Part shown: positions 10,363-49,300 of the stretch, one piece after another
How the letters are laid out: each line of letters opens with the position of its first letter
How positions within the stretch are numbered: the first letter of the stretch is position 1
Source of the DNA: Antedon mediterranea
Taxonomy: Eukaryota; Animalia; Echinodermata
Direction of reading: 5' to 3'
DNA length: 64,000 bases
Assembly: GCF_964355755.1 (NCBI RefSeq)
Contig: NC_092672.1
Location: forward strand, 20,473,237-20,537,236
Notes under the pieces: generated by a model
What the model was told of the DNA's origin: nothing
Database searches by the model: none
Seen by the model: only the letters and a program-made list of their open reading frames with translations
Translations under genes and position numbers: made by a program

Positions 10363-10366
10363 TTAA

Positions 10367-22390: not shown

Positions 22391-23308
22391 TTTTTAAGAA
22401 TAAAAACTTATTTCATTGTATCCTATAACTTTTTTAAACATTGATGCTTTCAAGTAAATTTAAAACAATTAATGGATGGATATTATAATTGAAGACTATC
22501 TAAGTTGTAGTCCAGCAGATGCGGACATTCAGGCGACCCTTGTGAATCACAAACGTTAAAGAGTGAAAAAGTTCATTAAATTATGAAGCCTTGTCATAAA
22601 CAGTAGAATTGAAGCAATTTTATGATACATTACAGAAGGATAATCACTAGATTTATTTTTACATTTCATCTGACTCCAAAATCTTATTTGTACAGTAGCC
22701 TTGTATGTTTAGCTAAAGAATAAATTTACACTGACAGTACAGTATCTCAAGCTAACTTTAAATTGTTTTTTGTCATTTTTAAAAATACAAAACAGAAGAG
22801 CACAAAACAGGCCAATGTCAAAATTATTATTATATTAAGTTAATTTATACTACAGTGTCCACGAGCAAAGCACATCTACCTTATAAAATGAATAATGAAT
22901 AATATATTAAGATTTAATGACAATTTTTGACAAAATGTGTTTTATAACCTAAAATTAGAGCAAATATACCAAAACATGAGCCCATATTATTAACATGATA
23001 ATATTATGAAAAATTTGATATTTTTTGGTGGTTGTTGTGCTTTGTATAGCAAATTTTGAAAATGTCTAATTAACCAATGACAAGCAAATCATAGGTAAAA
23101 TTACTTGAGTTGCATCTAAAGCATGTACTGTAGTACCTGTGTTGAATCTTAGTTGGAACCATTGTTATCATCTTAAGTCTTTGCTTTAGGAATCATATTC
23201 AATCCTTTTAGATAAACTATTTAGTTCTACTAGCCTTACTGGCCGTCTAACGGTAACCATCTACAGTGATTTTGAGATTCAGGAATCAAACATACTGTAG
23301 TACAGTAG

Positions 23309-24494
23309 AATAGTGCAACACAATATCTAGAAATTGATGTACAGATGACAATACATGTCAGAACAAATACTCAGAGGTACATTATAGCATTTATGTTATA
23401 AGAGTTTAGTTAATAGTACAACACAATATCTAGAAATTAATGTACAGATGACATGTCAGAACAAATACTCAGAGGTACATTATAGCATTTATGTTATAAG
23501 AGTTTAGTTAATAGTACAACACACTATCTATAAATTGATGTACAGATGACATGTCAGAACAAATACTCAGAGGTACATTATAGCATTTATGTTATAAGAG
23601 TTTAGTTAATAGTACAACACAAAATCTAGAAATTGATGTACAGATGACATGTCAGAACAAATACTCAGAGGTACATTATAGCATTTATGTTATAAGAGTT
23701 TAGTTAATAGTACAACACAATATCTAGAAATTGATGTACAGATGACATGTCAGAACAAATACTCAGAGGTACATTATAGCATTTATGTTATAAGAGTTTA
23801 GTTAATAGTACAACACAATATCTAGAAATTGATGTACAGATGACATGTCAGAACAAATACTCAGAGGTACATTATAGCATTTATGTTATAAGAGTTTAGT
23901 TAATAGTACAACACAATATCTAGAAATTGATGTACAGATGACATGTCAGAACAAATACTCAGAGGTACATTATAGCATTTATGTTATAAGAGTTTAGTTA
24001 ATAGTACAACACACTATCTATAAATTGATGTACAGATGACATGTCAGAACAAATACTCAGAGGTACATTATAGCATTTATGTTATAAGAGTTTAGTTAAT
24101 AGTACAACACAATATCTAGAAATTGATGTACAGATGACATGTCAGAACAAATACTCAGAGGTACATTATAGCATTTATGTTATAAGAGTTTAGTTAATAG
24201 TACAACACAATATCTAAAAATTGATGTACAGATGACATGTCAGAACAAATACTCAGAGGTACATTATAGCATTTATGTTATAAGAGTTTAGTTAATAGTA
24301 CAACACAATATCTAGAAATTGATGTACAGATGACATGTCAGAACAAATACTCAGAGGTACATTATAGCATTTATGTTATAAGAGTTTAGTTAATAGTACA
24401 ACACAATATCTAGAAATCGATGTACAGATGACATGTCAGAACAAATACTCAGATGTACATTATAGCATTTATGTTATAAGAGTTTAGTTAATAG
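23309..24494 (+). repeat. 98-bp minisatellite, 12 units
   Basis: Unit AATAGTACAACACAATATCTAGAAATTGATG...GAGTTTAGTT with period 98 (first unit 103); very few substitutions. Confidence 0.95.
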
Positions 24495-26324
24495 CCCCAT
24501 TTTGATATTTGAGTGTCTTTTTTGTTTTCATTAATTCTAAAAGCAAGTAATATAATTTAAAATACAAATTGCCGGTGCAATATTATTATAGTGCACACAG
24601 TAAAATGAATGTAGTCAGAAATGAAAAAATCTGAATCTTGTTAATATATTACATTTTAATATATCTTCTTTCTTGTTTGTTTGTGTATAAATAGACCTTT
24701 ATTATGTTTTTAATTATATGTTCATTGTCAGTGACATATTTTCCATCCTCATGTTTGGTGTAGGACATTAAAACTGCATTTCATTGTCATGTTTTCTTAG
24801 CTTTCAAAGCCTGTTCTTTAATATCAGTTCAAACTGGAGAACAACAACCTGGTTGAATATTCTAGCACCCAGTCTCCTATTATTCAATGTTTTTAATGTC
24901 TTGATTTGTGGTGAAAAGAATATTTGATTACAGATACAGATACAGATTTTAACTTTTATTGTCCAAATAAACTGGAAATTGCATTTGCTCACTTATCACA
25001 TAAAAATATCGTATAAAAATAGAGTATAAAAATAGAGTATAAAATGTAGAAAAACAATATAAATTAAATACAATAAATTATACAATATTGTGAAATAAGT
25101 AAATAATATTCTAATTTTAGCTAATTTATGTGAACATCATTCAATTTGAGGCCTCTAATATTAATCTCATATTTAATAGTAAACATGTCCTACTGTTTTA
25201 TAACAATTTGATCAATTTTAAATTTGAGTGCTAAAAACTTGTTTGCTAAATCTAAAACTTAGTTTTCTTCATCTTTCTGAGATAAAACATTATTTGAATG
25301 CCTTTCTGTTGAATTTGACAGTAAAACAAAGGTAATTTCATTGCAAACCATTGTTTATATCACCATGGTTAAGGACAGTTTTAAAGAAGACTCAATAGGC
25401 CAAATTTGTTTTTGTTACGTTTCAGGATTTTAATTTCTTATTTTTTATTTGAGAAATGTACACAATTTTTTAAAGATGGTCTTACAGTTCAGTTGTGTTA
25501 CATACCTTAGATTAGAGTGGGTAATAAATGCTTTATTTTTATTTTTTTTTATTACCATTAAAATATACAATGTAGCTAATAGATTAAAAAGTCATCCATC
25601 TCCAAAATTTGATTATAAAGAAAATGTGAAATTAATTAACATTTTGTTTTTATTTATTTTATCTTTCATATGTTATTACTCTATGATTTATATATACTAC
25701 AGCTTATGTATTCTCAGTGTTCTTTCTTTTTAATTAATTTGTGGTTAATTAAATTCCACAAATATAAAATTTATGGAGGGTGACATTTAAGTTTATCTAA
25801 ATTGTGTGCACAATAAAAAGAAGTTTGCTATTCATTTTGTATAACAAACACATGGAATATTTTAAAACACATTTTGTTTCTATTGTTCACTAATCATTGT
25901 ATACTTTATTGTTTTATAGCATTGCTATGTTTTAATATTGTTGTTGTTCCACTTTAGTGCTTTTTGACAATTAGGCTTAAATATAGTTGTTACTTTGTGC
26001 AAAACAATATCAGTTTTTTGTAGCAACAGTGTACAGTTATATGCTCTAATTTAAAATATAATCTTTAATGTGTATTATTATCAATACATAATGCTATACA
26101 TTTTGGTTTTTCACGCTATGGTCATAAATTTCCATTTGAAACACTTTATAAAACATTGAAAACAATAGTGCCTTGACCATTTTATTAAATTAATATACAT
26201 TTTTTTAAACAGTATTTAATCAATAGTTGCAGGTGTATTGTCCTCAAAATCATGAAAAATGAAGATTAATTACCGTAAATCAGATTTTAAATATGTTATT
26301 TTCTAGGGTTTTAATCAAGTTAAT

Positions 26325-27043: not shown

Positions 27044-29360
27044 ATGTACTTGACGGTGATTATTTTGCTTTTTATTAAAAGAAAGAAATTAACAAACACA
27101 AATAAAAAACAAAACTTGGTCTACTAAAATCCGTAAATAAGTGCATATATATTAAAAGCTTTGGTTGCAGTGCAAGTTAGTTGACCAATAACCAGCAATT
27201 TGTTTAGTTTGATTAGGTGTACTGTAATAATATCATAGGCTATAAAACATGTACATTTACTATTAAAATTTATATCCTGATGAATTTCAACATTTCTTAA
27301 GAGCTACAGTAAATGGAACTTAGTCTACAACCTAGTTTTCCTGATAATAACAATCTGAGATAAATCTTTGTTTTAATACACTTATTGATAGATTTGATAA
27401 TAAAACAAAGGGATTGTCATTGGCAACCCTTGTCACCATGGTTAGGAAAAGACTGAATAAGTCAAATTGTTAAAGACTGTTCGTTTCATGTCCAGGATTT
27501 GAATTATTTAATTTTTATGCGGGGAAATTACTATTAGTCAATCAATGAATTCTACTACAAATAGAAATATGTTGTAAATGCAATATTGTGGGCATGCAAT
27601 GCATGTGGTGGGGCGTTTACTTAAGGAAATAGTCCAAATGATGTTCTATAGGGACGTAATATTCGTGGGGGATTATTCAAAAGAGGGTGTTTAATCAAAT
27701 TGTCATCCATGCACCCTACCAGGTCCCCATCTCTGAAACCTATCAGCACCACAACCACACAGGTTCAGTACATTTTCTAGTAAAAAGACCTCCAACCCAG
27801 CAAATGGGCATTTGATATGGAACACAATCTAAAATGTTTGTCACCGAAGTTGAGCTTGAGTGACAGTCGATACTGAAACACACATGGAATTTGATTTAGT
27901 GATTTGAATAAAATAAATTTAATTAATTTCAAACAATGACAATTTATTTAATTTATTTAAAAATTGATATTAAAATATAAAGCATTTTGTTCATTTAATC
28001 TGGGGATGGTAATGGGGTAAAAAATAAATAATAATTTAAGTATAAGCTAGTAAAATAGTTTGTTTAGCAGAATTGCTATCGAAGTTTACTCAATAATATA
28101 GTTCTGCTGTTACCACTATTACATTCTTGAATGATTAATTAACACCAAACATGTTGAGTGCTTTCTGCCTTTTTAGCTTACATAAATTTTGCCATTTTGG
28201 TGCTTAATATCAGGTGAATAGTGGTAAAGTTGGCACCACCTGCAGTTGATTGAATGTATCAGTTAAATGTTCTTGATTATAATTTCTAGGGCATAGACCT
28301 ATAATCATTGATACAACTGAAGTATCTTAACCCTTATCTATCTTATCTAGTTTGTTAACTCTTCTCAAAATGAATTCACAAGGTTCTTCTAGATAATGTA
28401 GTGTTTTTTCGTTTGTTTTTTTGATCACTTGCCTAATTTTAGGTCTTGAAATTTAAAAATGAATATTTGGTTGAAAGAAATGAAAAAATGATGAAAATGA
28501 GAGCCTCTGTAGGCTGTACACTGTTATGTTTTAAACAGTATAGTTGTAAAACTAAATTTTCATGATAAATGGTTTATTAAATTTTATAGACTTATTATGG
28601 CTAGTTAGTATGGCAGCTATTAATTATATAAACAGTTTAGTTTTCTATTAATACTAAACATGTTGGATAATCATTTGACTAATATCAAAAAAAGTTTATT
28701 GTTTAATTTTATAAATAATCATAGTTATACTAAATAAAATACCAAAAAGTAATGAATTTATTATTTAAAGTATTTATTATTCCAATACACAACTGAAATT
28801 AGTTTTGCTTATTAATACTCTGAATCTTTTTAGTTTCTTTGTAAAAATAGTTAATTCTTGTTTATATTGTTTTAAAAGTATTTGTACTAAAAAATATTAG
28901 TTTAATATGTAGTATTTTTAATGATTTAATTAACACAGTAGGTTGTGAATCATTTTAGTTGTATGCCTAATTACTGTAATAATATCATAAATTGTCAATA
29001 TTATCTAATAGTTTTAAACGTATAAGGCCATGTAAAAAAAAACAACAGTTGATCGTCCTGGTTTTCTAAAAAAAGGAAGGAAGAGGCTCTTTTTATTTTT
29101 TATTTTTCCAAGATGGCGACTCACTACCGTATTTTCTTGAATAAACATGCCGCTATGAATAAAAATCACTCCCACCCCTCGCATACACCCTTCCTGACAA
29201 TTCAAATAAATATGGTAAGTACTGTAAGATGTCTAAACAAACATAAGTATACAGAACAGCAAATATTAAATTACACCTTTTTTTTATTTTATCAGGGGGT
29301 CACAATAAAAGTCCTTTTTGTACACTTTGACTTTATATCAAACTTCTGGATATTATTAGC

Positions 29361-29708
29361 CTACTGTGGCACAAATGCTCTAGTGTTTTTCCTTTTGGGT
29401 GTTTTGCCTGATTCCTTGCATTCACTACAAAGTGGATAATTCATGTTCTCAATTGATAAATTGTGCTCAGTTCCACAATAAAAGCACAGGGGGTCTGTGA
29501 ATGTTATGTAATAAGCTGCTTCGATAGGCAGGGCACATGTCATTTTGTCATTGACAAAAACAATAGAATCGTCCTCTCCCAGGATGTCTTGAAAACAAGT
29601 TCCACATGAATACGACAGTGTGTCCAGTTCTCGTTCCAAGAGCTGCCCTTGGTCACGCTTCAGAACATGAGCTGCATAACATACTCGCCACTTGAGGCAT
29701 TCTTCACA
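29361..29708 (-). pseudogene. Terminal exon remnant of a Zator-like transposase
   Basis: After a polypyrimidine-TAG acceptor: CEECLKWRVCYAAHVLKRDQGQLLERELDTLSYSCG...TCALPIEAAYY...CFYCG...YPLCSECKESGK*; family assignment from recalled motif pattern plus TIR/TSD type. Confidence 0.6.
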
Positions 29709-29932
29709 CTAGAATAAAGAATGAAAAAGAGTAGGGGTAAATATATGGTAAATTCAGTTGTGTTGAAAGAATTCTGAACATGACAATAATATGATAATAT
29801 GACATCCAAAGAGGGAGGGAATATCAATGCATACACACATATTTTAAACAGGACGTGGGTCATGTACCCGAACACGTCCGTAAACATCTAGCCTATATAT
29901 ATGGGACAGTTTCAACCCAGCCGGGTCGATTC

Positions 29933-30230
29933 TGTTGTGATTTTAGGTCGGTGCTGGAATGGCCTGGTAATGAAAGCTACTAGGCTTACCTTAACAGTCC
30001 CGCTTGTCCTAAATCACACAAGTATCCGCAAGCAGTAAATCCAAATATCTTGGTCAATTCCGGTTGTGTCCGTTTCTCCTTGGTTCCTGCTTCGAATAGA
30101 TCGGTTCGGCCGGCGTCAAGGCCCCACGTTAACATTTGCATACCCCCTGTATGCAAATCAAGCTATCGGGGCGACGCCCTCGTTCGGTCGGAGGGGTGGT
30201 CTGTTTACCCAGCGGGCGCCGTTCACAACA
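29933..30230 (-). repeat. 3' LTR
   Basis: TGTTGTGA...TCACAACA termini; I see 2 substitutions relative to 37404-37701. Confidence 0.97.
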
Positions 30231-30238
30231 CTCCTCCC
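30231..30238 (-). promoter_or_regulatory. Polypurine tract
   Basis: Minus strand GGGAGGAG immediately before the 3' LTR. Confidence 0.8.
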
Positions 30239-30462
30239 GTGTTTGAAAAGCGGGCACCCCGTCCTGGGTCCACCTCGGGGGTAAACCAGGTGATTTTCGT
30301 ACGTGAAAAAATACCCGATACCCGTAGCTATGTAGACTGCTCCCAACGATCTCTTCAGATAGTCAATGGCCGTGGGACATGCCAGTAGCACCGTCCCCCG
30401 CTTCCGTCAGCAAACGGCACCTGGTCCCTGTCTGAGAGAGAAGAGAAAATAAACGCGAGTAC

Positions 30463-33400
30463 CTAATTGTTAACCGAGGACTTGCAGTCCGCACATCGAT
30501 ATAAGTCGATGTCCAAGGCCTCAGACGGTGCAATATTCACACATGCACCATGGTACCACACCTCGCAATAGTCACATTGTATCATAAATGAGCCGGCCCA
30601 GGGCTGGCGACATAGACAATACAACGGTCCTCCTGCATCCGGATCTGTAGGTGAAGAGAGAGGAAGTAAGTTAAAATCAACCAGCCATTTAGGAAGCTGT
30701 CGATCCCGACAAGGCTTCAGCTTGTCATGATTTAAAACCACTGTCTTGTTTCTCAGCTGCACCTGAAATAAACAAGAACTAATAACCTTAGTGATAATAC
30801 CAGGCCCCTTCCAGGGGGGACACAATTTCTTGCACTTCCCCCGAGGGGTAGCGTTGTCCAGAACGTAGACTTTGTCCCCACATTGGTATGGACGTTCCAG
30901 CACTCGAAGATCATAGTCCCGTTTCATCCTCTTCTGAGTCTGCTTTAGCGTATCCCTAGCGATGCCATGGGCATCACGGGTCGCTTTCACCAAATCTGCA
31001 ACGTAGATAGCGGCTTCCTGCTCATCAGTGGACCGGCATTCTCCGAACATGAGATCAGCTGGTAAATTAACCTCTCGGCCCAGCATCAGCATGTTTGGAG
31101 TAAAACCAGTCAAGCGGTTCACCGTGGCGCGTAGTGCACCAGCAATCTGCGGTAGATAGACATCCCAGTCTCGTTGTCTCTTCCCAACGAAGCATCGTAC
31201 AGCATCCATAAGTGTTCGATTAAATCGCTCTACTTGACCATTAGCCGACGGTCGGTAGCTTGTCGTCCGGGTCTTGTGGATCTGTAAAACTTTACATAAA
31301 GATGCAAACAATTCACTCTCAAAATTTCTCCCCTGGTCTGAGTGTAACTGAAAAGGTACACCGAATCTAGAGAAGAAGTCCCTTACTAGGGCTCTAGCGG
31401 TTACCTCCGCAACCTGAGACGGGAGCGGGCTGATCTCAACCCATTTTGTGAATTGGTCGACCATCATAAGAACGTAAATATTCCTCTGTTCAGTTTTTGG
31501 TAACGGGCCGAGGAAATCGATATGTACGCGTTCCATTGGAACGCCGGCCTGGAATTCAGTCAACCGATGTCGACCTTGCCGAGTAGCCTTCTTGCTTCTA
31601 TTACAAATATTGCAAGTCTGTACATACCTCTGTATATCCCCGCCCATACCGTACCAGAAAAACTTCTCCTTCAATCGGAACTTGGTCCGGGCGACCCCTT
31701 GATGACCCGCCGACGGCAAATCATGATGTAACCTAAAAGCTACGGCGTGTAGCTCCTTGGGCAACACAAGTAGTCGTCCGGTACCCTCTGCTTGGTTGAT
31801 GAACAGTATACCTGCTTCCGTGAGATGCAAGCGTTGCCTGTTCAGCCAGTAGTGTTTGGTGGCAGCGCTGGAGATAAACAGCTGATTCTCGGAGGGTTCC
31901 CCATTCCGCAACCAGTCCAGAACAGGTGCCAAGTCAGGATCACTCGTTTGATGTTGCCGTAGCTCATCCAGTGAGTAACCCCAACACTCGGCTTCCTTCG
32001 GCCGTAGCTGTACTGCAGCCACTCGTCCACCATCATCGTCCTGTAGGAAAGAAAACTGAATCGTACCGTTAGTAGCAGTCCGTGATACCTCTATACTTAC
32101 TTGTCCACCGGGGTCCCAAGGAACATCGTCCCCTGGCAGAGTACCCTCCAGGTGGTCCACGGCTACCTGGTGTACGTGCACGATGGGCACAACGTCGTCC
32201 ACTTCATCCTGGAACGTTGACCATCTCGCATCCGCTCGTTGACAGTACGAACAGCCCCCACAGGGAAGCCCTTCAAGCGCAGGCCGTTCGTGGCTACTGT
32301 CATGAGTTTCGGGTCGGCGAGACAGAGCATCAGCGTTGCCATGGTGTTGCCCTCGGTGGTGTTCAATCAACAGGTGGTACTGGCTCAACTCCTCGATCCA
32401 CCGAGCGAGTTGCCCCTGTGGCTGCTTGAAGTTGAGGAGCCAGGTCAGGCTGTTGTGATCAGTCCGCACTCTAAAAGGTCTGCCCAGAAGGTAGTGCCTA
32501 AAATGCCTTGTCATGAACACAATTGCTAGCAACTCCTTGCGTGTAGTGCAATAGTTCCGTTGTTCATGAGTTAGACGAGCACTTGCGTATGCAATTACCT
32601 TCTCCTTACCTTCCTGCACCTGGAGCAGCTCGCCTCCTAGCGCTTGATCCGAAGCGTCGACATCCAGAATGAATTCATCAGTCCCGTTCGGCAAGGCGAG
32701 TAGAGGAGGTTTAACGAGAGCAGCTTTCAGGTCGGTGAACGCTTGTTGTTGTTCCTCATCCCAGTGAAACTTCACCTCTTTTTTAGTGAGTTCATATAGA
32801 GGTGCAGCTAAACCAGCAAAGTTCTCAATGAACTCTCTATGGTAATTAGCCAACCCCAAGAACTGCTGTACTTCTCTCAGATTGGTAGGTGTCGGCCAGT
32901 CTTGAACAGCCTTTATATCCGAATCGGACACTGCCACCGTATCCTCCCCAACGATTCGCCCTAAAAACTCAACCTGTTTCTGAAAGAAAACACACTTTTT
33001 AGGTTTAAGTTTAAAGTTGTTAACACGAAATTGCTGCAGAACCTGAGAGAGGTTGCTGAGATGATCTTCAAACGTTTTACCTAGCACGACAATATCATCG
33101 AGAAATGCCAATACCGTATCCCACGCCAATCCCCGCAGCACCAAACCCATGGCACGGGAGAAGGTTGCAGGACAATTGGTAAGACCAAATGGCATTTTCA
33201 CGAATTCATACAGGCCATGCTTGGTGATAAACGCTGTCTTCTTACGGTCTTCATCCTTCATCTTAATCTGCCAGTACCCCCAAATCGCGTCCAGTTTAGA
33301 AAACCAGATATTCCCCGACAGTGTGTCAAGGCAATCACGAATCAGAGGTAATGGATACGCATCTTTAGTCGTGATGTTGTTGAGAGCTCGATAGTCAATG

Positions 33401-34722
33401 CAAAAGCGCACAGAACCATCGCGCTTCCGGACCAACACAGGCGGTGACGCCCATTCAGACATGGATGGTTGAATAACACCAGCCTCCAACATCTTCTTTA
33501 TCTCCTTTTCCTCCTCCCCCACAAAGCGCAGAGGAGTATGGCGGAGTCGTTGCCTGATCGGTGAGGCATCTCCAGTGTCGATGCTGTGTTCAATATCACC
33601 AAAGGTGCCAATGTCGAACTGATGAGCGGCGAAGACATCCTGGTAATCAACCAATAGTTTAGTGAGCGCGTCAGCCTCTTCACCTGAGAGATTAGATCTC
33701 GAAGAGTCCAACATGCCCACTAGGTGCGCCGGCACCCCCTCGGGTTGGTTACCGTCATCGTCCGCTTGATTCGACAAAGCATCCTCGGACGGAGTCACCC
33801 CCGTCTGGAACACACTCACCCCTTCAGCTTCCCTGGCCGTACCTATCTGTCTACCCTTTTTCATAGTAAGATAGTGATCAGATGTGTTGATGACACAGAT
33901 GCATGGCGCATCAGTGCGTAGATGTAAAGTTGCCGGTATCGCCACATCGTCAGTAGTTGGAACTGGCTCTATAAAGAAATCAGGCATAGATACATTGTTA
34001 GTCACAAGTTTACATTTAACATGAGCGGCTGAGTGAGGAGGAATTACTCTCCGTTTAGCCACCGTTACCTGGGCAACCCTAGGTTCCACCGGTGAATCCC
34101 CTCTTAGAGATATGGTACTGCCCCCAATTGCCAAAAGCAAATTCCCACAATCGATAACGGCTCCCTGTGGATGAAGAAAATCACCACCCAAGAGCATATC
34201 GTCATTGATGGGGGCAACATAAAAGAATTCATGGTACTCTTTGGTTCCCAATGTAAACTGTAGCGGCCCCACCTTCGACCCTGGCATAGATGTCCCCCTC
34301 CCTGCCAAAGTAAAGGACAGGGTGGACACCACAGGTGGTGCCGGATCTAGACTTTTATAAACCTTATCGGATAGTATGGTAAAATCCGCTGCAGTATCCA
34401 CGACTGCGTCAATTTTGGTACCATTGACAAAAGCAGTTGCATGCAACGCATTCAATGATTTTACCCTATTGATAACAATCCGGGTTTGCGTCTCTTCAGT
34501 TTTGGTTGTCGTCGGTGTAGATGATTCAATCAGCCCTGAGCTAATTGCAGACGGCTCAATGATCGTCACAGGATCCGGTGCTACCCCCTCTGTATTTACA
34601 GGCTTGGCCATCGGGCCTAGCTTGGGGATAGTCGACGAACCATCCTCTTTCTGGCCAGCTTCCGGAACCGGGTTAGGTCGTCGGCCCTCTGACCCAACCC
34701 TTACTCGTTTAACGGATCCGGC
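30463..34722 (-). CDS. pol: Pol polyprotein: protease, RT, RNase H, integrase, C-terminal PHD finger
   Basis: Frame open from 34722 (first ATG 34611). Motifs: VVDTAA (PR); RFCIDYRALN, MPFGL, FLDD (RT); DVDAS, TRKELLA, ADALSR (RH); H-H-C-C, HIDFLGP, SDQG, VERFNRTL, WKGP (IN); C4HC3 PHD. Confidence 0.97.
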   Translation of the reverse strand, partial: AGSVKRVRVGSEGRRPNPVPEAGQKEDGSSTIPKLGPMAKPVNTEGVAPDPVTIIEPSAISSGLIESSTPTTTKTEETQTRIVINRVKSLNALHATAFVNGTKIDAVVDTAADFTILSDKVYKSLDPAPPVVSTLSFTLAGRGTSMPGSKVGPLQFTLGTKEYHEFFYVAPINDDMLLGGDFLHPQGAVIDCGNLLLAIGGSTISLRGDSPVEPRVAQVTVAKRRVIPPHSAAHVKCKLVTNNVSMPDFFIEPVPTTDDVAIPATLHLRTDAPCICVINTSDHYLTMKKGRQIGTAREAEGVSVFQTGVTPSEDALSNQADDDGNQPEGVPAHLVGMLDSSRSNLSGEEADALTKLLVDYQDVFAAHQFDIGTFGDIEHSIDTGDASPIRQRLRHTPLRFVGEEEKEIKKMLEAGVIQPSMSEWASPPVLVRKRDGSVRFCIDYRALNNITTKDAYPLPLIRDCLDTLSGNIWFSKLDAIWGYWQIKMKDEDRKKTAFITKHGLYEFVKMPFGLTNCPATFSRAMGLVLRGLAWDTVLAFLDDIVVLGKTFEDHLSNLSQVLQQFRVNNFKLKPKKCVFFQKQVEFLGRIVGEDTVAVSDSDIKAVQDWPTPTNLREVQQFLGLANYHREFIENFAGLAAPLYELTKKEVKFHWDEEQQQAFTDLKAALVKPPLLALPNGTDEFILDVDASDQALGGELLQVQEGKEKVIAYASARLTHEQRNYCTTRKELLAIVFMTRHFRHYLLGRPFRVRTDHNSLTWLLNFKQPQGQLARWIEELSQYHLLIEHHRGQHHGNADALSRRPETHDSSHERPALEGLPCGGCSYCQRADARWSTFQDEVDDVVPIVHVHQVAVDHLEGTLPGDDVPWDPGGQVSIEVSRTATNGTIQFSFLQDDDGGRVAAVQLRPKEAECWGYSLDELRQHQTSDPDLAPVLDWLRNGEPSENQLFISSAATKHYWLNRQRLHLTEAGILFINQAEGTGRLLVLPKELHAVAFRLHHDLPSAGHQGVARTKFRLKEKFFWYGMGGDIQRYVQTCNICNRSKKATRQGRHRLTEFQAGVPMERVHIDFLGPLPKTEQRNIYVLMMVDQFTKWVEISPLPSQVAEVTARALVRDFFSRFGVPFQLHSDQGRNFESELFASLCKVLQIHKTRTTSYRPSANGQVERFNRTLMDAVRCFVGKRQRDWDVYLPQIAGALRATVNRLTGFTPNMLMLGREVNLPADLMFGECRSTDEQEAAIYVADLVKATRDAHGIARDTLKQTQKRMKRDYDLRVLERPYQCGDKVYVLDNATPRGKCKKLCPPWKGPGIITKVISSCLFQVQLRNKTVVLNHDKLKPCRDRQLPKWLVDFNLLPLSSPTDPDAGGPLYCLCRQPWAGSFMIQCDYCEVWYHGACVNIAPSEALDIDLYRCADCKSSVNN
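34670..34713 (-). promoter_or_regulatory. -1 ribosomal frameshift signal
   Basis: G_UUA_AAC in the gag frame inside the 22-nt gag/pol overlap, 6-nt spacer, 10-bp stem GGGUUGGGUC/GACCUAACCC; pol is in the -1 frame. Confidence 0.8.
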
Positions 34723-36578
34723 TCATTGCCACTAACCTGACGCAAACGGCTCGCTAATCTCGGACACTCCCTGCGGAAGTGTCCCACCTCCTTACATTCA
34801 AAACAAGCCAGTTCGCCTGGTTTCAGGAAACGCATGAGCTGATCCAATTGATTCCGCATGGCGGCAATCTCCGTGTTCACGGTGTTCTCCACCCGTCCCA
34901 GATTGGTATTCAACGTCTGGAAATTACCCTCCACAGTAGCCAAACGGGCTTCTGTAGTAGGAGTATTGTTGGTGGGTGGCACCGACGTCACAGTTCGAGG
35001 AACCCAAGCTGGTGCTGGCCTTTGAAACGTTACACGGTTTCCCCTCATAGGCCTCCCTCGCACCTGCTGAATGGACACCTCATCGACAGTTTCACCCTCG
35101 GTATCGTCCTGGTCTTCTGAAGGTAGCTGAAAAGATAGTGGGGGTGCAAAAGAAGTACGGACCGTGGACCTAACATGAGGTTTCACGGTATCCTTAACCT
35201 TACTCTTACGTTTACTATATAGCCCCCTATAACTATCATATTTTTCAAACATCCTAATAGCTCTGGGAATAGTTGAACAGTGCTTGTGCATGACGTGCCT
35301 ACCTACTTCTGCATCCCTGCACCCAATACAAAACCTAACTACGGCCTGCTCTTGGATCCACTCCTTGGGCAAATCCTTAAACGCCTTTCTAGTCAAGGTT
35401 AGCACTCTATCTCCCCATTCCTCTATAGTCTCTCCCTCATTTTGCGTAGCAGTCTCTAATTTAGCTTGGAGGACTGCGGGGAGCTCGTCCTCACTAAAAC
35501 GTCGGTTGAAAGCTTTAATGATCTGCCTAAAGCCTAAATCAGCGTCCATTTCTATCAGATTCACATAGAACTCAGCCGCCGCCCCGTCTAAACACCAAGT
35601 AAGGACGTCCTTACTTTCACGGTTTGTGAGTTCCTGCTCCTCTATAAATGAAGCCAACCGCCGCTTAAAAAAGGACCAGTTGTCTCCCCTCCCCCTAAAC
35701 GTTAGAGACCTAGGTATATCTTTTTTACGCATCCTCCTACGTTCTACAAAATCCTGCCGGCCTTCATAGTGCCTGACTCTCGGGATAGCCCTAAGACACT
35801 CCACTGCTGTCCTAGCCCCTGCACTATGTCTATCCGACTGTCTATCCGACTCTCTACTCCTGCTACTATCAGTATCAGCACCATCCCCACTAAGGTCACT
35901 ATCGCTGGCCGATGGAGATCGCCGGCGAGCCCTAGTTTTAGACCTAGCGGTTTTAGATAGTCTCCTGGGGAGTCTTTCCTCCTCGTCCTCCCTAGAGCTA
36001 AAACACGAGTCTAAGGTTATCGGAGATGGCTTTTTGATGTAGCTCCTACGTTGTGTTGACCTATTCTTACTCCTATCCTGGTCAGAACGCCCAGCGAAGG
36101 TGGATGGCGTATAAGCCCCAAGCCCACCTTCGAGATAACGAGGATCACTAGCAGGTCCTGTAGTATAATACGTACCCGGTACGTCTAATAAAGGAGTAGC
36201 CTGGGGCGATGAGAGGACGTGGTATCGACCACTATGGCCCCCGTCATTTTTCCCCCGATATGCCCCTTCCATACCTACAGATTGTGAGACCTGCGACCCC
36301 TTTCTGGCCGCTCTATTTTGCTTCTCCACTAGAGGTGACACATTATCAATCATCTGGCCTACGCCTCCCCCTAAACTCGGATTCGGCTGAAAATCCAGGT
36401 AGTCCACCAACCTGGCAGTACCAGCTACTCCGTGTATCTGATTAATATTAGAGGGCGTAATGTTGCCATGGGTAGCCCGCCATTTAATTATTCTAGTTGC
36501 TCGTTTCTTCCCTACATTAGGGACTCCATGAAGATCTTGCACTGGGCAAAAGTTAACTAGAACCTTATTAGACGACAT
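34701..36578 (-). CDS. gag: Gag (625 aa): N-terminal helix-hairpin-helix domain, capsid-like region, CCHC zinc knuckle
   Basis: Upstream of pol; F.G.G.NW..F...L...L.G.A capsid pattern; CFECKEVGHFRREC knuckle (34764-34805); N-terminus VNFCPVQDLHGVPNVGKKRATRIIKWRATHG. Confidence 0.95.
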   Translation of the reverse strand: MSSNKVLVNFCPVQDLHGVPNVGKKRATRIIKWRATHGNITPSNINQIHGVAGTARLVDYLDFQPNPSLGGGVGQMIDNVSPLVEKQNRAARKGSQVSQSVGMEGAYRGKNDGGHSGRYHVLSSPQATPLLDVPGTYYTTGPASDPRYLEGGLGAYTPSTFAGRSDQDRSKNRSTQRRSYIKKPSPITLDSCFSSREDEEERLPRRLSKTARSKTRARRRSPSASDSDLSGDGADTDSSRSRESDRQSDRHSAGARTAVECLRAIPRVRHYEGRQDFVERRRMRKKDIPRSLTFRGRGDNWSFFKRRLASFIEEQELTNRESKDVLTWCLDGAAAEFYVNLIEMDADLGFRQIIKAFNRRFSEDELPAVLQAKLETATQNEGETIEEWGDRVLTLTRKAFKDLPKEWIQEQAVVRFCIGCRDAEVGRHVMHKHCSTIPRAIRMFEKYDSYRGLYSKRKSKVKDTVKPHVRSTVRTSFAPPLSFQLPSEDQDDTEGETVDEVSIQQVRGRPMRGNRVTFQRPAPAWVPRTVTSVPPTNNTPTTEARLATVEGNFQTLNTNLGRVENTVNTEIAAMRNQLDQLMRFLKPGELACFECKEVGHFRRECPRLASRLRQVSGNEPDPLNE

Positions 36579-37388
36579 GATCTAAAAAGTGTCTCTCTTC
36601 TATTGGGTTGTTATGCTCCTAAATCTAGTTACAGTGTATGGCAGATGTTATTAAGCAAAGAGTACGATACAAATTAAAATACCGCCAGACGTAATAAAAA
36701 TTACAGGCCCAACAGTAGAATAAAATATCGTCAATGCAGTAACACACACACAATATTGCAAAATGGTTGTTGGAGATGCAAATATAATAAAATATTTCAC
36801 CAGCAAACCTGCAATAAGAAACAACTAGATTATTCAAAAAGACGTCAATACAGTTTAACAACACTTACCACTAAACCTTCCCCCGATGCAAAGAAAGGAG
36901 AGCGATAATGCCACTGTGAGGTTAACACAATAATACGCACAGCCAATATAATTTCTCAAGATGAAAAACCTGACTGACGGACGAAAAAGATGTTATCAAT
37001 AAAAAACAATCAAATTTAAAATTAGTGGTGCCACTCAGTTCAACGGCCACGCCTAGTATCCCACCAGGTGATACGGCCTAGTAAACTGCCCACTAATCCT
37101 TCAACTATAGCAAAATAAATACAACTCCCGGTACGCATCGACTACCCCGTCGATACGCTAATCAGCAAGCATCCAAATGCCACAATACTGCGTGATTAAC
37201 TTTACCGGTATGTTATACCTTCAATAAATATACCAACTTCAATAAACTAACAAATGCACCGTAAGTACAATAAGTTAATAATTTCAGCAGAGGACGAAAT
37301 ACCTCGCAATCAACCCGATCACGTTAAGAATGCCAGCTGGCAATCAAGGCACCCGCCTCCCCACCAAAAAAAAAGATTTCCGAGCTTT

Positions 37389-37402
37389 TGCTCGCAGCGC
37401 CA
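37389..37402 (-). promoter_or_regulatory. Primer-binding site, probably tRNA-Ser
   Basis: TGGCGCTGCGAGCA one nt after the 5' LTR; complementary to a ...TGCTCGCAGCG-CCA end, similar to animal tRNA-Ser(CGA/TGA) 3' ends. Confidence 0.8.
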
Positions 37403-37403
37403 A

Positions 37404-37701
37404 TGTTGTGATTTTAGGTCAGTGCTGGAATGGCCTGGTAATGAAAGCTACTAGGCTTACCTTAACAGTCCCGCTTGTCCTAAATCACACAAGTATCCGC
37501 AAGCAGTAAATCCAAATATCTTGGTCAATTTCGGTTGTGTCCGTTTCTCCTTGGTTCCTGCTTCGAATAGATCGGTTCGGCCGGCGTCAAGGCCCCACGT
37601 TAACATTTGCATACCCCCTGTATGCAAATCAAGCTATCGGGGCGACGCCCTCGTTCGGTCGGAGGGGTGGTCTGTTTACCCAGCGGGCGCCGTTCACAAC
37701 A
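37404..37701 (-). repeat. 5' LTR
   Basis: 298 bp, TG...CA, adjacent PBS. Confidence 0.97.
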
Positions 37702-37808
37702 ATTCGCCCCTCTATATGGATAGGCAAACTCTACACTCTCTCGCGACAATATGCTAGCCTACAGTTTTGTTACTTCTATATGAACATTTTTACCGAACAA
37801 TTACTCAC

Positions 37809-37987
37809 CTCCGTAGTTTGGTATTGGTCTCCTATCGGTCCACCTTGATCAAATTCGCCGCCTGCAAAATCAGAGAAAATGTCTGCGAGAGTACGTCGGC
37901 CGTCCACTACACCGTTCTCGCATACCAAGCAAGGGCCGGCTTCACGATTTTTGTTGCAGTCCGAATTGAAACACAAATAAAAACCAT
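37809..37987 (-). pseudogene. Possible first exon remnant of the Zator-like transposase
   Basis: ATG at 37987, MVFICVSIRTATKIVKPALAWYART, then frameshifted VDGRRTLADIFSDFAGGEFDQGGPIGDQYQTTE ending at GAG|GTGAGT. Confidence 0.4.
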
Positions 37988-40900
37988 GTTGTTTATCTAC
38001 TATCTAGTCTAGCAGTATCCTACTATCCTAGATCAAATTATTATGTAACAGTTGATAAAAGGACTAAAAAGTAGGCCTACCAAGGAACCAATAATTATAA
38101 ATATTAATAGTGTATACTGTAACTCAAATGTATAGAATATAGCGATAGAAACAAGGTAGAACCAAAAACATGTGTTCTCCAAATCCAGTCGTTTTTTGCT
38201 TCACGGCAACATTTTTAGGGAGTAGCGAGCATATAGCGGCTGTGAAAATTCTAATTAGATCCAGACGTTTATGTAAAATATTATACCCATGATGAGTGTA
38301 ATTCAAAATATTCATACATTCAACGGCAGTGATACCTCTATCATCGCTGACCTATAATCAAAGAATATGACCTCAAATTTATCGCAGTCGACGATGTGTA
38401 TCGATGGCTCCCGACGGCTGTGGATCACGAAAAAAGAAAGAGCTAGGCCTAGCTTTCGACAAAGGTACAACATAAATCAATGTTTTATATACAAAATATC
38501 GAAATAAAAAATAAAATAAAAATTGATGCGGCCTGAAAAAAGCATGCGGGCGGGGACGATCAACTGTTGTTTTTTTTTATATGGCCTAAACTAAAATATA
38601 ATAAATTAAGACTCTTTGTACACATTTTGTACATCATTGCTTTTTTTTTTGTACATCATTGCTTTTTTATACCGTTGCCACTGCTTTTCGTTCTTTGCAA
38701 TACCCATGTTTATACTGTTATATACATTAATATCTTTCCTTTTTTAGTAGTGCCATCTATGTTTTGATATTTTCCAAAAATGTTATAGTGCATGCTATTA
38801 GTGTGGACATAACTATCATAAAACCTCTCAATATTTCATTTGTTCAAGTTGAGATGTCATACTTTAATTCATCGTTCACATCAGCAGTTGATTGAATGTA
38901 ATGTTTAAATATTATCTACTCAACAAATATGTTCCATTTGTATAATGTACAGTACAGTAAGCATTAGCAAACCTTTACATTATTTTTTCTTTTTGCGCAT
39001 TTAAATACCCTATAAAAGTATGAATACACATGTGGTTGATAACCACAATAAAATAAAATATAGATAAATTGGCCAGACAAATTGGTACGCATACTGGCCC
39101 ACATCTTTCTGTTTCACTACATTATACTGGTACTGCCAGTAACTGCTGCTGCTAATAACTTTATCAATTCCAATAATTCAGACAACAATGAACACAAATA
39201 AAAAACAACAAAAAAAACAACTTTTTACCATAAAAAAGACTTTCTGAGATAACAGTTTTAATTATTGTTCTTTCTTCATTAAATGTTATTTTTTAAATTG
39301 ATATTCTATTTAATAATTTAAGAAACAAAGATTTATTATCAATTATTTTTGTTTAAAAATCAGTAGTAAACATTTTGTGTAAAATAAATATAGTTTGAAT
39401 TACTAGACTATAGTACTATGCATATTCTGAGTGGCATTACTCACTAAGGTTGGAGTGACCCACTCATACCCATACATTCTAGTGAACAAAAAAATGTATA
39501 ATTTTTCATGAGCCTTTGTTGTACAGCAGCAGCCGACAAACGTACTCGCTAATCAAAAAATTTATTATCTATATATACCCCATTCGCCAAAAATATTTAC
39601 CATAGAGGAAGTATTGTTTTGACCATTAATTATTCAATGATAATCTGACGGTAATTATATTTAGCCCCTATGTTGACAGCCAAAACATTGTTTATTGAAC
39701 ATAGGTCAAACTAATGTCTATATACATCTCATAGACTCTCTGTGCGCATGCCCAGTTTGAGTTAAAAAATTCCCATTTAGACTCTTTTCCCAGACGTGCT
39801 TTGAGGTGTGCTCATGTCCAGTTTGTGTTTCTAAATACCCATTTTTTCAGCCTTAATAAACTATTTTAAGCCTGCATTGTAAATGTTTCCTAATGCTTCC
39901 ATTCTCTTGAATGTAACTGCCTACAAAAAAAAAATTGTTGTGTACTTTTTGAAAATTTACTTTTTCATTAATTTTATTTACTGAAGTATAAAACATTTCA
40001 ATAGAATAAGCAATGATTGGAACATGTGATACAGCACTTTATTTGTTTATTGGTATACTCAGTATGCATGGTCTACTAGGAAAGTTGTATGTAGCCTCAG
40101 TGAATATTATTCACATCCTATACACAATGTATATTATTCCACTGTTTGTCTTCAATTATAGGATTTATAGTATAGATAATTTTTAGTTGCATTGAATCTT
40201 TTTCAAATGTTGGTATATATACATGTGAATAAATAATGTTTATTTCTTGTTATAATTACTGTATAATGATTTATTTCAAGTGATTTATTTTTATATCTTT
40301 GAATTAAAAAGAATAACAATTTTTATGAATTTGTTTTAATGTAAATTTTATTAATTTTTTGTAAGTCAATTCAATAAGTATAACACAAATAATAAAGATC
40401 TTAAAATCTATTAAACTGTATAAATGTTAAGTTTGCATTTCTTATGTACTGTATTGATTTTCAGATTCAATATTTTTCACATTGATATGATTTGTTAGGT
40501 TCTTGGTATTCTGGCATCAGCCAAACCTTTACCCATTTTAATTCTCTGACAGGCTTGAGCTATTTAATTCAGGGAGGTATAAAAATGGTCATGGTATTTC
40601 TAAAAACTGTCCATTTGATCTAACAACTTTAAAAAATGAAACAAATATGGTTCAAAAAGATGTCTACAATTAAATTGTCCATCTTTGTTTTTTTATCAGA
40701 TTAAACTCAAGATTAACATTGTTACAATCAATATTTAGACTAATATGCTACACTTGCAAGAACTTGTACTAGCTAAACTCCACCACCACACAATAGAGCA
40801 ATGAACTATTTCTTTGCTCTATCATCACATAAAGGATAATTAACATAATGAAGTTAGTTAAACATGCCCCTGAAAGTAAAAGTTTGTATGCCAAACCTTC

Positions 40901-42874: not shown

Positions 42875-44931
42875 CAGTAATGGCGCCAGCGGGGGGGCCG
42901 GGGGGGGGGAGTCGTCGGGGAGTATTGGCCATATTTGTCGGGGAGAAAAATATGATCATTTCTTTTCTGGTAAAAAATAAAACCATATTAAGTGTACTAC
43001 ATTTTAAGTAACTGCGGCATTCCATTTTTGACGTACGTACGATATACTGACAGCGAAGTAAACAGTATGTGGTACGCATTTGTCTGGCGGTGTCTCTTTG
43101 TACGAATCTTTCATGGCCCGGCCCGCAATATTTCTTTTCGTACATAAGTTGGGGATCCCTCGTAAAACGTCACAAAATAAACATGAATATTCATTAGTCA
43201 TATCCATAAGGTCTGACGTAAGAATTGAGCTAACTACAATTCGCTAATGCAAACGATTTCTGTCGGGCCGTCTGTGTAGTCGAGTGGATACGACTATGGA
43301 CTTTACATGTCGATGTATGGGGTTCGAATCACATGAGCTACTTCTTTTACTTTATACTAGTGAGAGAGAGATTATTTAGAGGGTTAGATTTAGTTATATT
43401 TAGGAAGTAGTTCGGCTATCTTTCACATGGGGTCCCCAACTTATGTACGAAAAAAAAAATCGCTGCCCGGCCGGCCCGGCCGGCTCACTGCGGTATACGC
43501 GTCGACATATCTGGGCTGTATCATATTACATCCAGGGACCAAAATGTGTATTTTTCAAATTCCAGGCGAAAATCGAAAATTCATTTGCAACTACGCATCG
43601 ACGTACGTTCATACAGGGATAAAGCTACGAGTTATGTTCTCACGGTTGAGTTTACGAATTGTTTCAATTTACCAATAACCATTGTTGTACCGCGTATATG
43701 TTCGCTGTCGATTAAAGGGGTTTGGGTGGGGGTTCGATTGGGAAAAGGAAGCGGTTGTCCCGAACCATAAAACAGGGTCTGGTCACGTTTCTTTTCGCGC
43801 ATAAATCTCGATCTAGGGTGTGGGGGGGGGGGGGTGTGAATAGGGTGGCTAGCCACCTCCCTTAATTCTAAAGGAAAAAAAAAGATGCACCAAACCCGCA
43901 ACCGTCGCTAGAGATGCGGATTCGACGCACTTGACTCTCTTTTAATTAAGAAGAGTAGGCTAGAGCTATAGCTGTGTAAATAGGCCTACATATTGAAAGA
44001 GCTAAGAGTTTAATTACTATTTATGAATTCAAGAGTTTAAAAAGAAAAAGCGATTTAAAATCTTCGGAAAATACCCACAACTGAGTTATTTTCAAAACAC
44101 ATGCACTCCCACTACCAGCATCACGTTGTCTTAGCTCGCTCCTCGTGTGAATGCTGACGTCATCACTCTCCAAAAATACACCAGTTTCCGCCCTGGTCCG
44201 TGTGCAAGCTTTAGCGTGGACCTGTATATACACCCCTGAACAAAGTAGAGTGTAATATTGTGAACTTTTTTCTCGCGTATGAAGGTTTTTTATATAATGG
44301 TATGCAGTATAAACGATAAAAAAAACGTTAAACATGATGTTCTTTTATTATTATTTCATAGGCATAACATAAACATGAAATGTCTTGTTCTATGTACACG
44401 GCCGAAAAAACGTGTGTGGCGTATTTGGTATTTTATTGATTTGTGTTATAGACACGGCGTTAAGGCAATCATCATTGTATACAAAATTACATTGAGTTAT
44501 TCACCCGGCTATAGGGTATATTTGAGGTTAACAGACCACCAAAGCACAGTCGTACACTAAACACATGCACTATAGAGGCATTTTCGGAGTGCCGCATTAC
44601 CAAATGTTCATTTCGTTTGAAGTGTTTTTCGATCAAAGTTTATTATTAGTTCGTCGAAAAAGATCCGTATTAGAGTATTTAGGAAGGATTTATTTAAATT
44701 TACATTATTATGTGACATTGTTATTAAATTTAATGGAAACAGTTGCTCTAGCCTATTAAACATTGTGTAAGCATCTATTTTTTCAAAATTTTCTGAGGCT
44801 CGGGAGGGGGAATACCCCCTCCCAAACCCACCCCCGCTTTCGTGCGAACGGCCCCCGTGGGGGAATTCGGCCCCCCGTTGGGTAATTCGGGCCCCCCCCC
44901 CACGATCGGGGAAATCCTGGCGCCACCACTG
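42875..44931. mobile_element. Non-autonomous hAT-type element (2057 bp)
   Basis: TIRs CAGTAATGGCGCCAG / CTGGCGCCACCACTG; perfect 8-bp TSD TGACATTG (42867-42874, 44932-44939). Confidence 0.85.
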
Positions 44932-46349: not shown

Positions 46350-49300
46350 TAGGCTGATCCTAATGCTAATCCTAATGCTCCTAATGTTCACATGATTATC
46401 ATGGACCGATATGTCCCCCACCTTCAAATGAATAACCTTATTTTTTCTCATAAAACCAAATAAAGAAAGCAGATCAAGCATTTAGTAAAAATTTTATACC
46501 TGCATTTTCTTACGCACAACGCCTTTGCACCTACGCTTAGCACCTTCCAATATCATGTGCAATTACACTTGAGTTATTGTCTTCTTCTTCTAGACTGCAA
46601 TCATGTTCCCATTTAATACTGAAATATGGAGATTCAATCCTGGAATAGCACCATTCACCATCACAACCAAATACGACTTAGCATTTGTTCAACATTATCG
46701 ACTCCATAACTCAATTAACCATTTAGTAGGTAGCCTAACCAATACGGTTCCTGCCACAATCATCCAGTTTATGGGCGCTTGGTCTGTGGCTGTAGCCATT
46801 CAGTTTTCCTTAGTCATTTGACTTAACCATTCCCAATTGGCAATTGGTAAGCGTCTATACGCAAACAACACTGAGCTACTAAACCGAGGAATCTTAAAAT
46901 TATCAAAAGTGAGTTGACCCCAAATGGCATTCCAAATAATAGAAACAATCTCATTCATAAAAATCTATCTCCCTGCTGAGCAGATCAGCCTCCCAATTGC
47001 GCTCTCTATGCACCCATTGGACGTCTCTGAATAAATTTTTTTTCGCAAAGCTCTAAAGCCAACTGATCCAAGTCTTCATGCATGCTACTTTTCCTACAAA
47101 TTGAAACAACACCTCTGTTATCTATAAATATTTTAATTTGTTTCTCTTTTAAGGGGCCGTCCAAAAACTAATTTTCCGCGAGTTCCGCGATAACATACCC
47201 TATTACTTACTCAACCATGAAAGTGAACGTCTCTTGCGGTAATGAGGCAAAATCATTCAAGCTTGATTTTCTCGCGGAACTCATGAATATTAATTAATAT
47301 CGCGAGACTCGCGAAGGCCTTGCAATATCGCGGAACTCGCGGCAGTATTGCCAATACTAGAGAATATAGTGCTCGTTTGAATAACGCTTTGCCAGCCAGG
47401 TATTACTATTAGTATTAATACGGTAATTGATTTTTACAGAAGAACAAATTATATTTCAATATTGTTTACAATTATTATATCCATTCGTGTGTCTGATCTT
47501 GTTTTTGTTATTAATAAATATATAGATAATAATAAATGAAATGTGAGTGCCCCGAGTTTTACCACAATAAAAACCACTGAAGTAGATAGAAAATAATGTC
47601 AAGAAGATTTGTTTACACAACGACTCGGACGAGACGCAAACATCGCCTGACTTCTTTGCAAAGGGATTTCCCTTGCTTGCAGAGGCCTCCTTCTTGCGTT
47701 TACATTTTTTAACGTTGTCGCCACATTGTCATTGCCACGCCGCTAGCCTGGTAAAAACAACTACCAAGGTAGGCCTAGATTTATTATGAAATGCTTGTAC
47801 AGTACAGAAAGAAAATAATAAATCAGATTACGACGCATTACACGCACTCCTAGCCTATCCTCCCACCGCCGATCCGATCGAGAACACATGCAATTCAATT
47901 CATTGAGAAAACAATTCCATTTGACGCACACGCACCCCTCTCTGATAAGAAATTTCACACGGGGCGTCGTGTCGTGTACATACATCCACGCACGAAAGAT
48001 CTAGAAGGATCGTTGGAAAAACAATTCCTTTTGACGTACACGCACCCTCTGATAAGAAAATACCATGTGCGTTCCTGCATGGTGCAGTCCATTATACGTC
48101 TAAAATTAGGGGTGTCCACTTTTAATAACAAAGTTAAACACGCACCTCAATCCGAAGATCGTTGGAAGTATATTATATTTATATTTTATCGCACCCACCT
48201 CAATAATCCAGCCGACAGATCATCGAAAAATCTTGTTTAACAACGTCGTACACTAAATTAACGAACGCGTTTTTACCGACCTCAAAGAAATGGTATAGTC
48301 CACAATACATGTGCAGAATTAATTCTAAATTAACAGAGAGAGAGGGGTCGGCGTCCGTCCGTGTTTTGAATTTTATATTAAAAAAAAGCTTTAAAAATCG
48401 AAACTCGGAAAATAACTATAATTTATATTCTACTACATAATGTCATTGGCTTGAATTTTACCGTGGTTGAAACCCTGTGTATGAATAGTTGTACTGTGTA
48501 TGAATAGTTGTACTAGGCCTATGCCTACAAACAAATTGTTTTGGTATCATTTTCTCCGTTAGTATCAGAGTAGTTTAAGTAGGACTAGGCCTAGGCCTAG
48601 TAGAGTACTAGCCTACTGTAGTCGTATTCGGCCAACCTAGCTAGGCCTAAAAAACCGTGCTATTCTGTACTATGATCTCATCTATTTATTAGGCCGCTAC
48701 CCGCGGAACTCGCGATATGTGGGCGGCAACATTTTGATTGTTGATATGAATATTCATCAATTGCGTTCCGCGAGCATTCCGAATGAATATTTTTGTATCG
48801 CACGTTCCGCGGAAACGAGGTTCAATGAACTATGCGTAAAATCGCGGAACTCGCGGAAAATTAGTTTTCGGACGGCCCCTAAGTTAGGAGCAAATGCTTG
48901 TAATGCCAATAACACACATTTCAGTTCTCTCCACGTACAGCTTCTGACTGACTCATGCTGATTCCAGCCGAGACAAACTGCAAACGGTCATAGACCTCGC
49001 TCCACAATTCACTCCACTAGCGTCAGTAAATGTAATTGAATAATCAAAAAAATATTTTGCTTCCAGAAAAATATCTCCTCAATAACTAGACCCCCACTCG
49101 CTGTAGTAATAAAATGCCACAACTTGAGAAAGGGAAATTATCTTCCCCACTAGCCTCACTAAATCTCTGGACCTATAGTGAGGGAGACCCTGATTGACCT
49201 CTAATGAACCCAAACCAGCCATAGCCAGTTTACAACCGGACTTAGATCCTATATTGATTTTTTGACGTTTTAACAATGTTAGAGACTTTAGTACATGCGG

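Follow-up and report, generated by a model that had tools for sequence, protein, structure and literature searches.

A Gypsy retrotransposon clade with a PHD finger of the H3K4me3-reader type at the integrase C-terminus

We found that Pol of a Gypsy retrotransposon in the window (the whole stretch of 64,000 nucleotides analysed here) ends, behind the integrase and a variable linker, in a PHD finger that is real, conserved and, judged from its sequence, probably functional. The finger looks like a reader of methylated H3K4, and binding of H3K4me3 is predicted from its residues and modeled structure. Sequence comparisons indicate that its capture is old and common to a whole clade, rather than peculiar to the window copy. 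Fusions of PHDs with transposons are known in general; of a clade of Gypsy integrases that bear one we found no description in the literature searched.

The element shows the hallmarks of Ty3/Gypsy retrotransposons, namely paired LTRs, a target duplication, a primer-binding site, a polypurine tract and the gag-pol order. Its features, by window coordinates, are:
37404..37701, minus strand: 5' LTR, 298 bp, TG...CA, with 7-bp inverted ends
29933..30230, minus strand: 3' LTR, 298 bp, with 2 mismatches to the 5' LTR
29929..29932, plus strand: 4-bp target-site duplication ATTC, second copy at 37702-37705
37384..37403, minus strand: primer-binding site that begins with TGG, one base internal to the 5' LTR
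30231..30238, minus strand: polypurine tract adjoining the 3' LTR
34701..36581, minus strand: gag ORF of 626 codons, with Retrotrans_gag and a CCHC knuckle (ORF and Pfam)
34670..34713, minus strand: candidate -1 frameshift signal, heptamer GTTAAAC at 34707-34713 and a 10-bp hairpin 6 nt later
30463..34722, minus strand: pol ORF for protease, RT, RNase H, integrase and PHD (ORF and Pfam)
30688..31761, minus strand: integrase, with H2C2 zinc finger (Pol 988-1045), rve core (1062-1158), a long helix and a GPY/F-type beta domain with WKGP (Pfam)

The close match of the two LTRs indicates that the element is young and its insertion recent. Pol runs for 1419 codons from stop to stop without an internal stop, and Pfam orders its domains as protease, RT, RNase H, integrase zinc finger, integrase core and PHD, with no chromodomain detected by Pfam at the integrase C-terminus. 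Fold matches of the integrase were weak (Ty3 integrase, E 0.007; PFV integrase, E 0.011). The gag ORF overlaps pol, which lies in the -1 frame, and the hairpin at the candidate frameshift site is not unusual in RNA folding (z-score -0.61). The primer, which we take to be a serine tRNA, would pair with a site whose start is identical in the relatives L036 and L082. The N-terminus of the window gag (36455-36572, minus strand) resembles the helix-hairpin-helix family HHH_3 at 22.3 bits, below the cut-off, which is unusual for Gag; the gag of one relative (L047:5649-7175) matches HHH_3 above the cut-off (28 bits). Contigs from four public runs of three organisms covered 30/30 bins of the element, and many overlapping variant contigs were recovered, which points to a multi-copy family.

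The C-terminal region that concerns us here is composed as follows:
30622..30687, minus strand: variable linker from the integrase C-terminal domain to the PHD, Pol 1346-1367 (identity, pLDDT dip)
30484..30621, minus strand: PHD finger, Pol Y1368-C1413 (C4HC3 ligands, Pfam, alignment, predicted structure)
30619-30621, minus strand: codon of cage residue Y1368, aligned with PHF2 Y7
30598-30600, minus strand: codon of cage residue W1375, aligned with PHF2 Y14
30583-30585, minus strand: codon of cage residue M1380, aligned with PHF2 M20
30571-30573, minus strand: codon of D1384
30556-30558, minus strand: codon of cage residue W1389, aligned with PHF2 W29

An earlier note on this DNA had described a complete, in-frame C4HC3 PHD after the integrase at 30484..30624, an interval that is exactly Pol L1367-C1413, and the peptide that it quoted is correct. 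In the last 70 residues of the open pol frame, PF00628 (PHD) is matched at 40 bits (E 4e-10, curated cut-off 24) over residues 1369-1413, and 8/8 zinc ligands of the C4HC3 pattern are present. The likeness to PHF8/PHF2/KDM7A and BPTF/CXXC1-type fingers proposed there was borne out, as among solved structures the nearest in sequence are PHF8, PHF2, KDM7A, BPTF, Cfp1 and DIDO1 (E 2e-17 to 4e-11). So was the chromodomain-like position of the finger, with the WKGP motif lying ~55 residues upstream. In contigs of four public runs from three organisms, depth over the PHD bins was like that over the rest of the element, and a single contig (30401-32212) covers integrase and PHD together; the fusion is therefore neither a chance product nor an assembly join. 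Among the 40 of 1059 contig differences shown, the one inside the PHD (30550) is synonymous, and the linker carries an in-frame 3-nt deletion in contigs of 4/4 runs.

The predicted structure of the last 195 Pol residues has a mean pLDDT of 90, with ~96-97 over the finger and a dip to 53 in the linker. Overlaid on H3K4me3-bound BPTF, the modeled finger gave an rmsd of 1.1 Å over 55 columns, and the top Foldseek matches were mostly PHDs solved with methylated H3K4 or free forms (PHD-only rmsd 1.0-2.4 Å). The aromatic-cage positions pointed out in the earlier note are present as well: the PHF2-type set is complete in the alignment of window Pol. The residue at the D1384 position has an H3R2 role in other PHD readers, and this position is acidic throughout most of the clade (D in the window PHD, D/E in 85/88 members). 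The cage of the PHF2 PHD is described as Y7, Y14, M20 and W29 in PMC9898751, where the unmethylated-K4 reader BHC80 is given as having M in place of the W of methyl readers; the W is thus not required merely for folding.

To establish how widely the finger occurs, we compared searches seeded at different parts of Pol. A C-terminal search returned 47 proteins, 42 of them Pol with PHD. The RT-RNase H protein search, which is blind to the PHD, listed 120 proteins, 101 of which were >=60% identical. Conservation in related copies, on which the earlier note had made its proposal depend, was found here: the PHD is present in 63/67 of the close relatives (>=60% identical and reaching the integrase end), and among the four negatives, two start a finger that stops short, while in the other two the protein ends no more than 20 residues past the integrase. 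The same search found the PHD in 0/19 more distant proteins. At the DNA level, an RNase H-motif search gave 124 loci, with a PHD in 28 (in frame in 24); 42/124 were scored as lacking it, all of them <=60% identical, and the remainder were too short to score. Broken fingers, in 4/28 PHD loci and at least 2/67 proteins, are what one expects of decaying copies.

Phylogenies placed these fingers together. In the RT-RNase H tree (127 rows), 88/90 PHD rows fall in one branch with SH-aLRT 99, and in the integrase tree (127 rows), 89/90 do so, likewise with SH-aLRT 99; joining all 90 PHD rows by constraint improved the likelihood, and the test did not reject it (p-AU 0.79). Both trees are quick searches with SH-aLRT support, built on rows without named reference elements, after removal of 7 near-duplicates (134 to 127 rows) and of rows with <300 profile columns (RT-RNase H or integrase), multi-RT models and rows too short to score. 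With the distant elements as outgroup, a single gain of the PHD is the simplest reading. The cage counts below refer to 88 rows, excluding P0192, whose PHD (residues 1783-1831) has lost the cage residues, and P0205, which lies outside the branch in both quick trees. The PHD of P0205 (residues 1249-1298) has an intact cage and sits among PHD-less sisters, which reflects either recombination or misplacement.

Named relatives came from Nucella, Ostrea, Haliotis, Pinctada, Diadema, Lingula and Elysia, and further ones from symbiont bins in which host DNA is likely present, so the element probably belongs to a marine invertebrate. In a protein-cluster atlas, one PHD cluster, matched at 0.98, was mostly from molluscs, and the few recorded members of two other PHD clusters belong to the green lineage; no match to the element was found in viral contigs, nor in a single-protein scan of genome contigs. 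The PHD-less sister lineage occurs in the same sample sets as the PHD clade, and its integrases terminate in an acidic tail, in many cases together with a short arginine-rich motif. Examples are L009, L014, L039, L041, L045, L058 and L059, and the basic motif, where present, is of the T-R-x-G-R type. Such a tail is possibly a generic nucleosome anchor, maybe an older chromatin grip.

Among the 88 clade members, the cage Y position (Y1368) holds Y/F in 84/88, the cage M (M1380) is kept in 87/88 and the cage W (W1389) in 88/88, while all eight zinc ligands are intact in 86/88, so that the cage M and W are as fixed as the zinc ligands. The fourth wall of the cage (W1375 position) is aromatic in 31/88 and acidic in 46/88 (D in 44/88), with 27 of the 31 aromatic cases in the 37-row subclade that contains the window element; because this wall is variable, the preferred methyl state may vary across the clade. 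The position of PHF2 E22, an H3R2 contact, is Q in the window PHD and in 74/88 members, and position 1388 is V in the window PHD and E/D in 82/88. Mean identity to the window element is 57.4% over the PHD and 63.9% over RT, versus 13.7% over the linker and 21.9% over the spacer between RNase H and integrase, a contrast that speaks for selection on the finger.

Comparison with solved PHDs narrowed the donor of the finger, as far as its sequence can tell, to the PHF2/PHF8, Cfp1, DIDO1 and BPTF group. The best PDB matches of the clade profile were PHF2, Cfp1, DIDO1, BPTF and PHF8, and since all lie within ~7 bits, the donor is not narrowed further; a PHD-only search for host donors gave 4 proteins, too few for a donor tree. 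Cfp1 aligns with the clade PHD without gaps, and its fourth cage position is D, the residue found there in 44/88 members. The host readers PHF2/PHF8/KDM7A, Cfp1/Spp1, DIDO1 and BPTF resemble the Pol PHD in sequence, spacing and fold, and the Pol PHD differs from them in being fused to an integrase.

A second feature of this lineage is a third sense-strand ORF after pol, present in most relatives, ~500-1100 codons long where unbroken and ending in a C-terminal TatD domain (Pfam E 1e-27 to 1e-47; best solved relative, E. coli TatD). Examples are L002:6627-9347, L010:8546-10990, L085:9115-11262, L009:6198-8069 and L054:10916-12460, among others. Among loci with >=2.5 kb after the integrase, it was found in 19/20 PHD loci, 9/10 close PHD-less sisters and 0/6 distant ones, that is, in 28/30 loci of the PHD-bearing and close PHD-less relatives together; its presence in both suggests that TatD is as old as or older than the PHD. 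Across 18 sequences, the TatD motifs DxHxH and E-T/S-D are kept in 18/18, GExGxD in 16/18, HxR in 17/18 and HC/S in 15/18, and the long N-terminal parts of these ORFs matched no Pfam family. That TatD serves the element by trimming or clearing DNA intermediates is a guess. Other domains were seen in relatives: a Macro domain before the protease (P0045, residues 28-135), a GDSL esterase ORF (L023:3514-4680) and a C2H2 zinc-finger ORF after pol (L069:5199-6356).

No TatD match was found within the 64-kb window, and only ~230 nt separate the pol stop from the polypurine tract of the window copy. The likely cause lies at one site:
30401..30405, no strand assigned: likely deletion junction with a 5-nt overlap

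Contigs of other copies diverge on both sides of it, with loose ends at 30401 in 3/4 runs and at 30405 in 2/4 runs among the rows shown, which makes internal deletion the likely reason why the window copy has no third ORF. Judged by relatives such as L033, the missing piece would be the TatD ORF3. A pyrimidine tract ending in CAG just past the pol stop (~30424-30445, minus strand) resembles a splice acceptor for ORF3.

The surroundings of the insertion are repeat-rich with 31% GC, and the element lies inside another transposon:
29026..38586, no strand assigned: ~1.79-kb non-autonomous DNA transposon hosting the insertion, with ~33-bp inverted ends starting GGCC and a TAA duplication
29361-29708, minus strand: Cys-rich remnant ORF of this DNA transposon, with no significant Pfam match

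The sequence about the empty site has 2.9-4.6 CpG per 100 nt versus 1.7 in the window without the element, a density at this one site that 8-17% of the intervals compared match or exceed, so the excess is not significant. ORF inspection, carried out without gene prediction, showed no long host ORF near the insertion. The window contains no tRNA gene and thus lends no support to tRNA-gene targeting here. An LTR-pair search of loci with RT and GPY/F matches yielded no usable target site from PHD-bearing relatives; two-sided real flanks were obtained only for L111 and L122, distant PHD-less elements, the other loci being collapsed or circularised repeats. Elsewhere in the window there are tandem arrays at 13298-14581 (~99-bp units, open in two frames, probably by chance), 23255-24632 (~98 bp) and 11117-11739 (~83 bp), a 1.7-kb inverted-repeat element with 40-bp arms (47152-48880), an inverted pair of ~640 bp that is 97% identical (9729-10368 and 57852-58490) and a small MITE-like element (43118-43470).

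On balance we lean towards a reading in which the PHD remains attached to the integrase and, by binding H3K4me2/3, holds the integration complex close to active promoters. Gag-Pol would be made by -1 frameshifting, and the protease would release an integrase with the PHD still attached. It is highly probable, from the residues conserved, that the Y/M/W cage, joined by W1375 in the subclade of the window element, holds H3K4me3 or me2. Tethering would then bias insertion towards domains of H3K4me3, for example the flanks of promoters or expressed transposons, and a copy landing there would likely be transcribed; we regard this step as somewhat favored and much less secure than the cage itself. 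The likely origin is an ancestor in the TatD-carrying Gypsy lineage that gained the PHD once from a host reader, in place of the acidic tail. That a PHD tether can be sufficient is suggested by a review (PMC8149907), according to which HIV-1 integration moved to start sites when the ING2 PHD was joined to LEDGF. Counting against promoter tethering are the Q at the PHF2 E22 position, the V at 1388 and the variable fourth cage wall, the place of the single insertion seen, inside a DNA transposon and without a significant CpG excess, and the cost of promoter insertion to the host, argued for bromodomains in bioRxiv 2021.11.30.470311.

Among the alternatives, the one that survives best, though we consider it unlikely, is that the PHD binds H3K4me as a general nucleosome grip, or as an allosteric switch licensing strand transfer, with little promoter bias. 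The one insertion seen is not at an evident host promoter, and the acidic tail with its arginine-rich motif in the PHD-less sisters may be an older generic grip, both of which would fit. However, since promoters are where H3K4me3 is concentrated, a requirement for the mark would already skew the choice of sites. A switch has a precedent in RAG2, where H3K4me3 binding by the PHD relieves autoinhibition of RAG1/2 (meeting report, PMC3520747), yet the engineered PHD tether did shift integration (PMC8149907).

More doubtful still is a role after integration or apart from the integrase, in which the PHD would bind H3K4me3 on the element's own LTR or recruit anti-silencing factors, possibly once cleaved off. 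Captured readers have been suggested to help transposons evade suppression (bioRxiv 2021.11.30.470311), the PHDs of other retroelements described in PMC8557442 sit in non-integrase proteins, and the linker is long and variable enough that it could hold a protease site. But the linker shows no conserved cleavage motif, the finger would be made at low Gag-Pol levels, and its place at the C-terminus of the integrase is that of the chromovirus tether.

We judge it improbable that the cage serves a methylated non-histone mimic of the H3 tail, such as a host cofactor. The PHF2 PHD also binds K4-methylated VRK1 (PMC9898751), and the R2-contact residue of PHF2 is not kept in the clade; against this, most of the nearest structures belong to H3K4me readers, and histone H3 far exceeds such a ligand in abundance. 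The idea of a neutral passenger, or of an artefact confined to the window copy, can hardly be entertained for the PHD, as its ligands and cage are invariant among elements whose RT is only ~64% alike and whose linker drifts, it is covered in contigs from three organisms, and the PHD branch in the RT-RNase H tree contradicts it.

Returning to promoter tethering, its broadest form is tentative, and we put it at somewhat less than an even chance: an undescribed, widespread, TatD-carrying animal Gypsy lineage with an H3K4me3-reader integrase would be the mirror image of chromoviruses, homing to active promoters without a host adaptor and supplying molluscs, echinoderms and their kin with variation close to promoters. 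The choice of insertion sites by retroelements is understood in few systems, and where the cited papers describe self-encoded readers (chromodomain, MBD), these point to silent chromatin. If a clade did carry its own reader of an active-promoter mark, it would follow the opposite strategy, with a measurable cost to the host. The finger is small, at ~50 residues, and the close sister lineage without it provides a natural control. The TatD third ORF is a second unexplained feature of the lineage and worth study.

In the literature searched, mostly titles and the beginnings of abstracts, with Repbase, Dfam and most subscription journals outside the search, we found no description of a Gypsy clade with an integrase-terminal PHD or of a TatD ORF3. 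The main texts of surveys of mollusc and annelid LTR elements, including MolGy (PMC6238403 and PMC8556966), contain 'PHD' 0 times. PHDs are reported in CR1, Rehavkus and Chlamys elements (PMC8557442), which agrees with the mention of CR1 in the earlier note; its mention of BEL/Pao had 0 matches in the main text of PMC3118150. Transposon-PHD fusions described in bioRxiv 2021.11.30.470311 include cnidarian retrotransposons with PYGO-like PHDs, some of them expected to read H3K4me; its main text names no clade with an integrase-terminal PHD of the PHF2/Cfp1/BPTF type, and its Supplementary Table 6 may list members.

With respect to the third ORF, the bdelloid LTR retrotransposons Juno and Vesta have non-env ORF3s of DEDDy or GDSL type (PMC5408684) and share with the TatD lineage a nuclease-type third ORF after pol, TatD itself being absent from the main text of that paper. 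Ginger1 resembles the window element in having a PHD downstream of a Gypsy-like integrase, in Ginger1-9_HM behind an Ulp1 protease and in 1/16 families (PMC2836005), but it has inverted repeats, introns and no RT, whereas the window element has LTRs, RT and a clade-wide PHD. CopiaMBD is a case of an animal LTR retrotransposon that captured a host epigenetic reader, for which insertion guidance has been proposed (PMC6673714); it differs in being a Copia rather than a Gypsy element and in reading methylated DNA, with binding assayed, where the PHD is known here from sequence. RAG1/RAG2 likewise couples a transposase-derived enzyme to an H3K4me3-binding PHD (PMC3520747). It differs in being domesticated, with the PHD on a separate subunit. 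The RAG2 PHD is also of an atypical type. A parallel in architecture is found in chromoviruses such as MAGGY, in which a chromodomain, proposed as a tether, follows the GPY/F region of the Gypsy integrase (PMC6673714; bioRxiv 2021.11.30.470311). Both carry a histone reader at the integrase C-terminus with a proposed role in tethering; the window element differs in that its reader is a PHD with an H3K4me-type cage, for which the predicted target is active and not silent chromatin.
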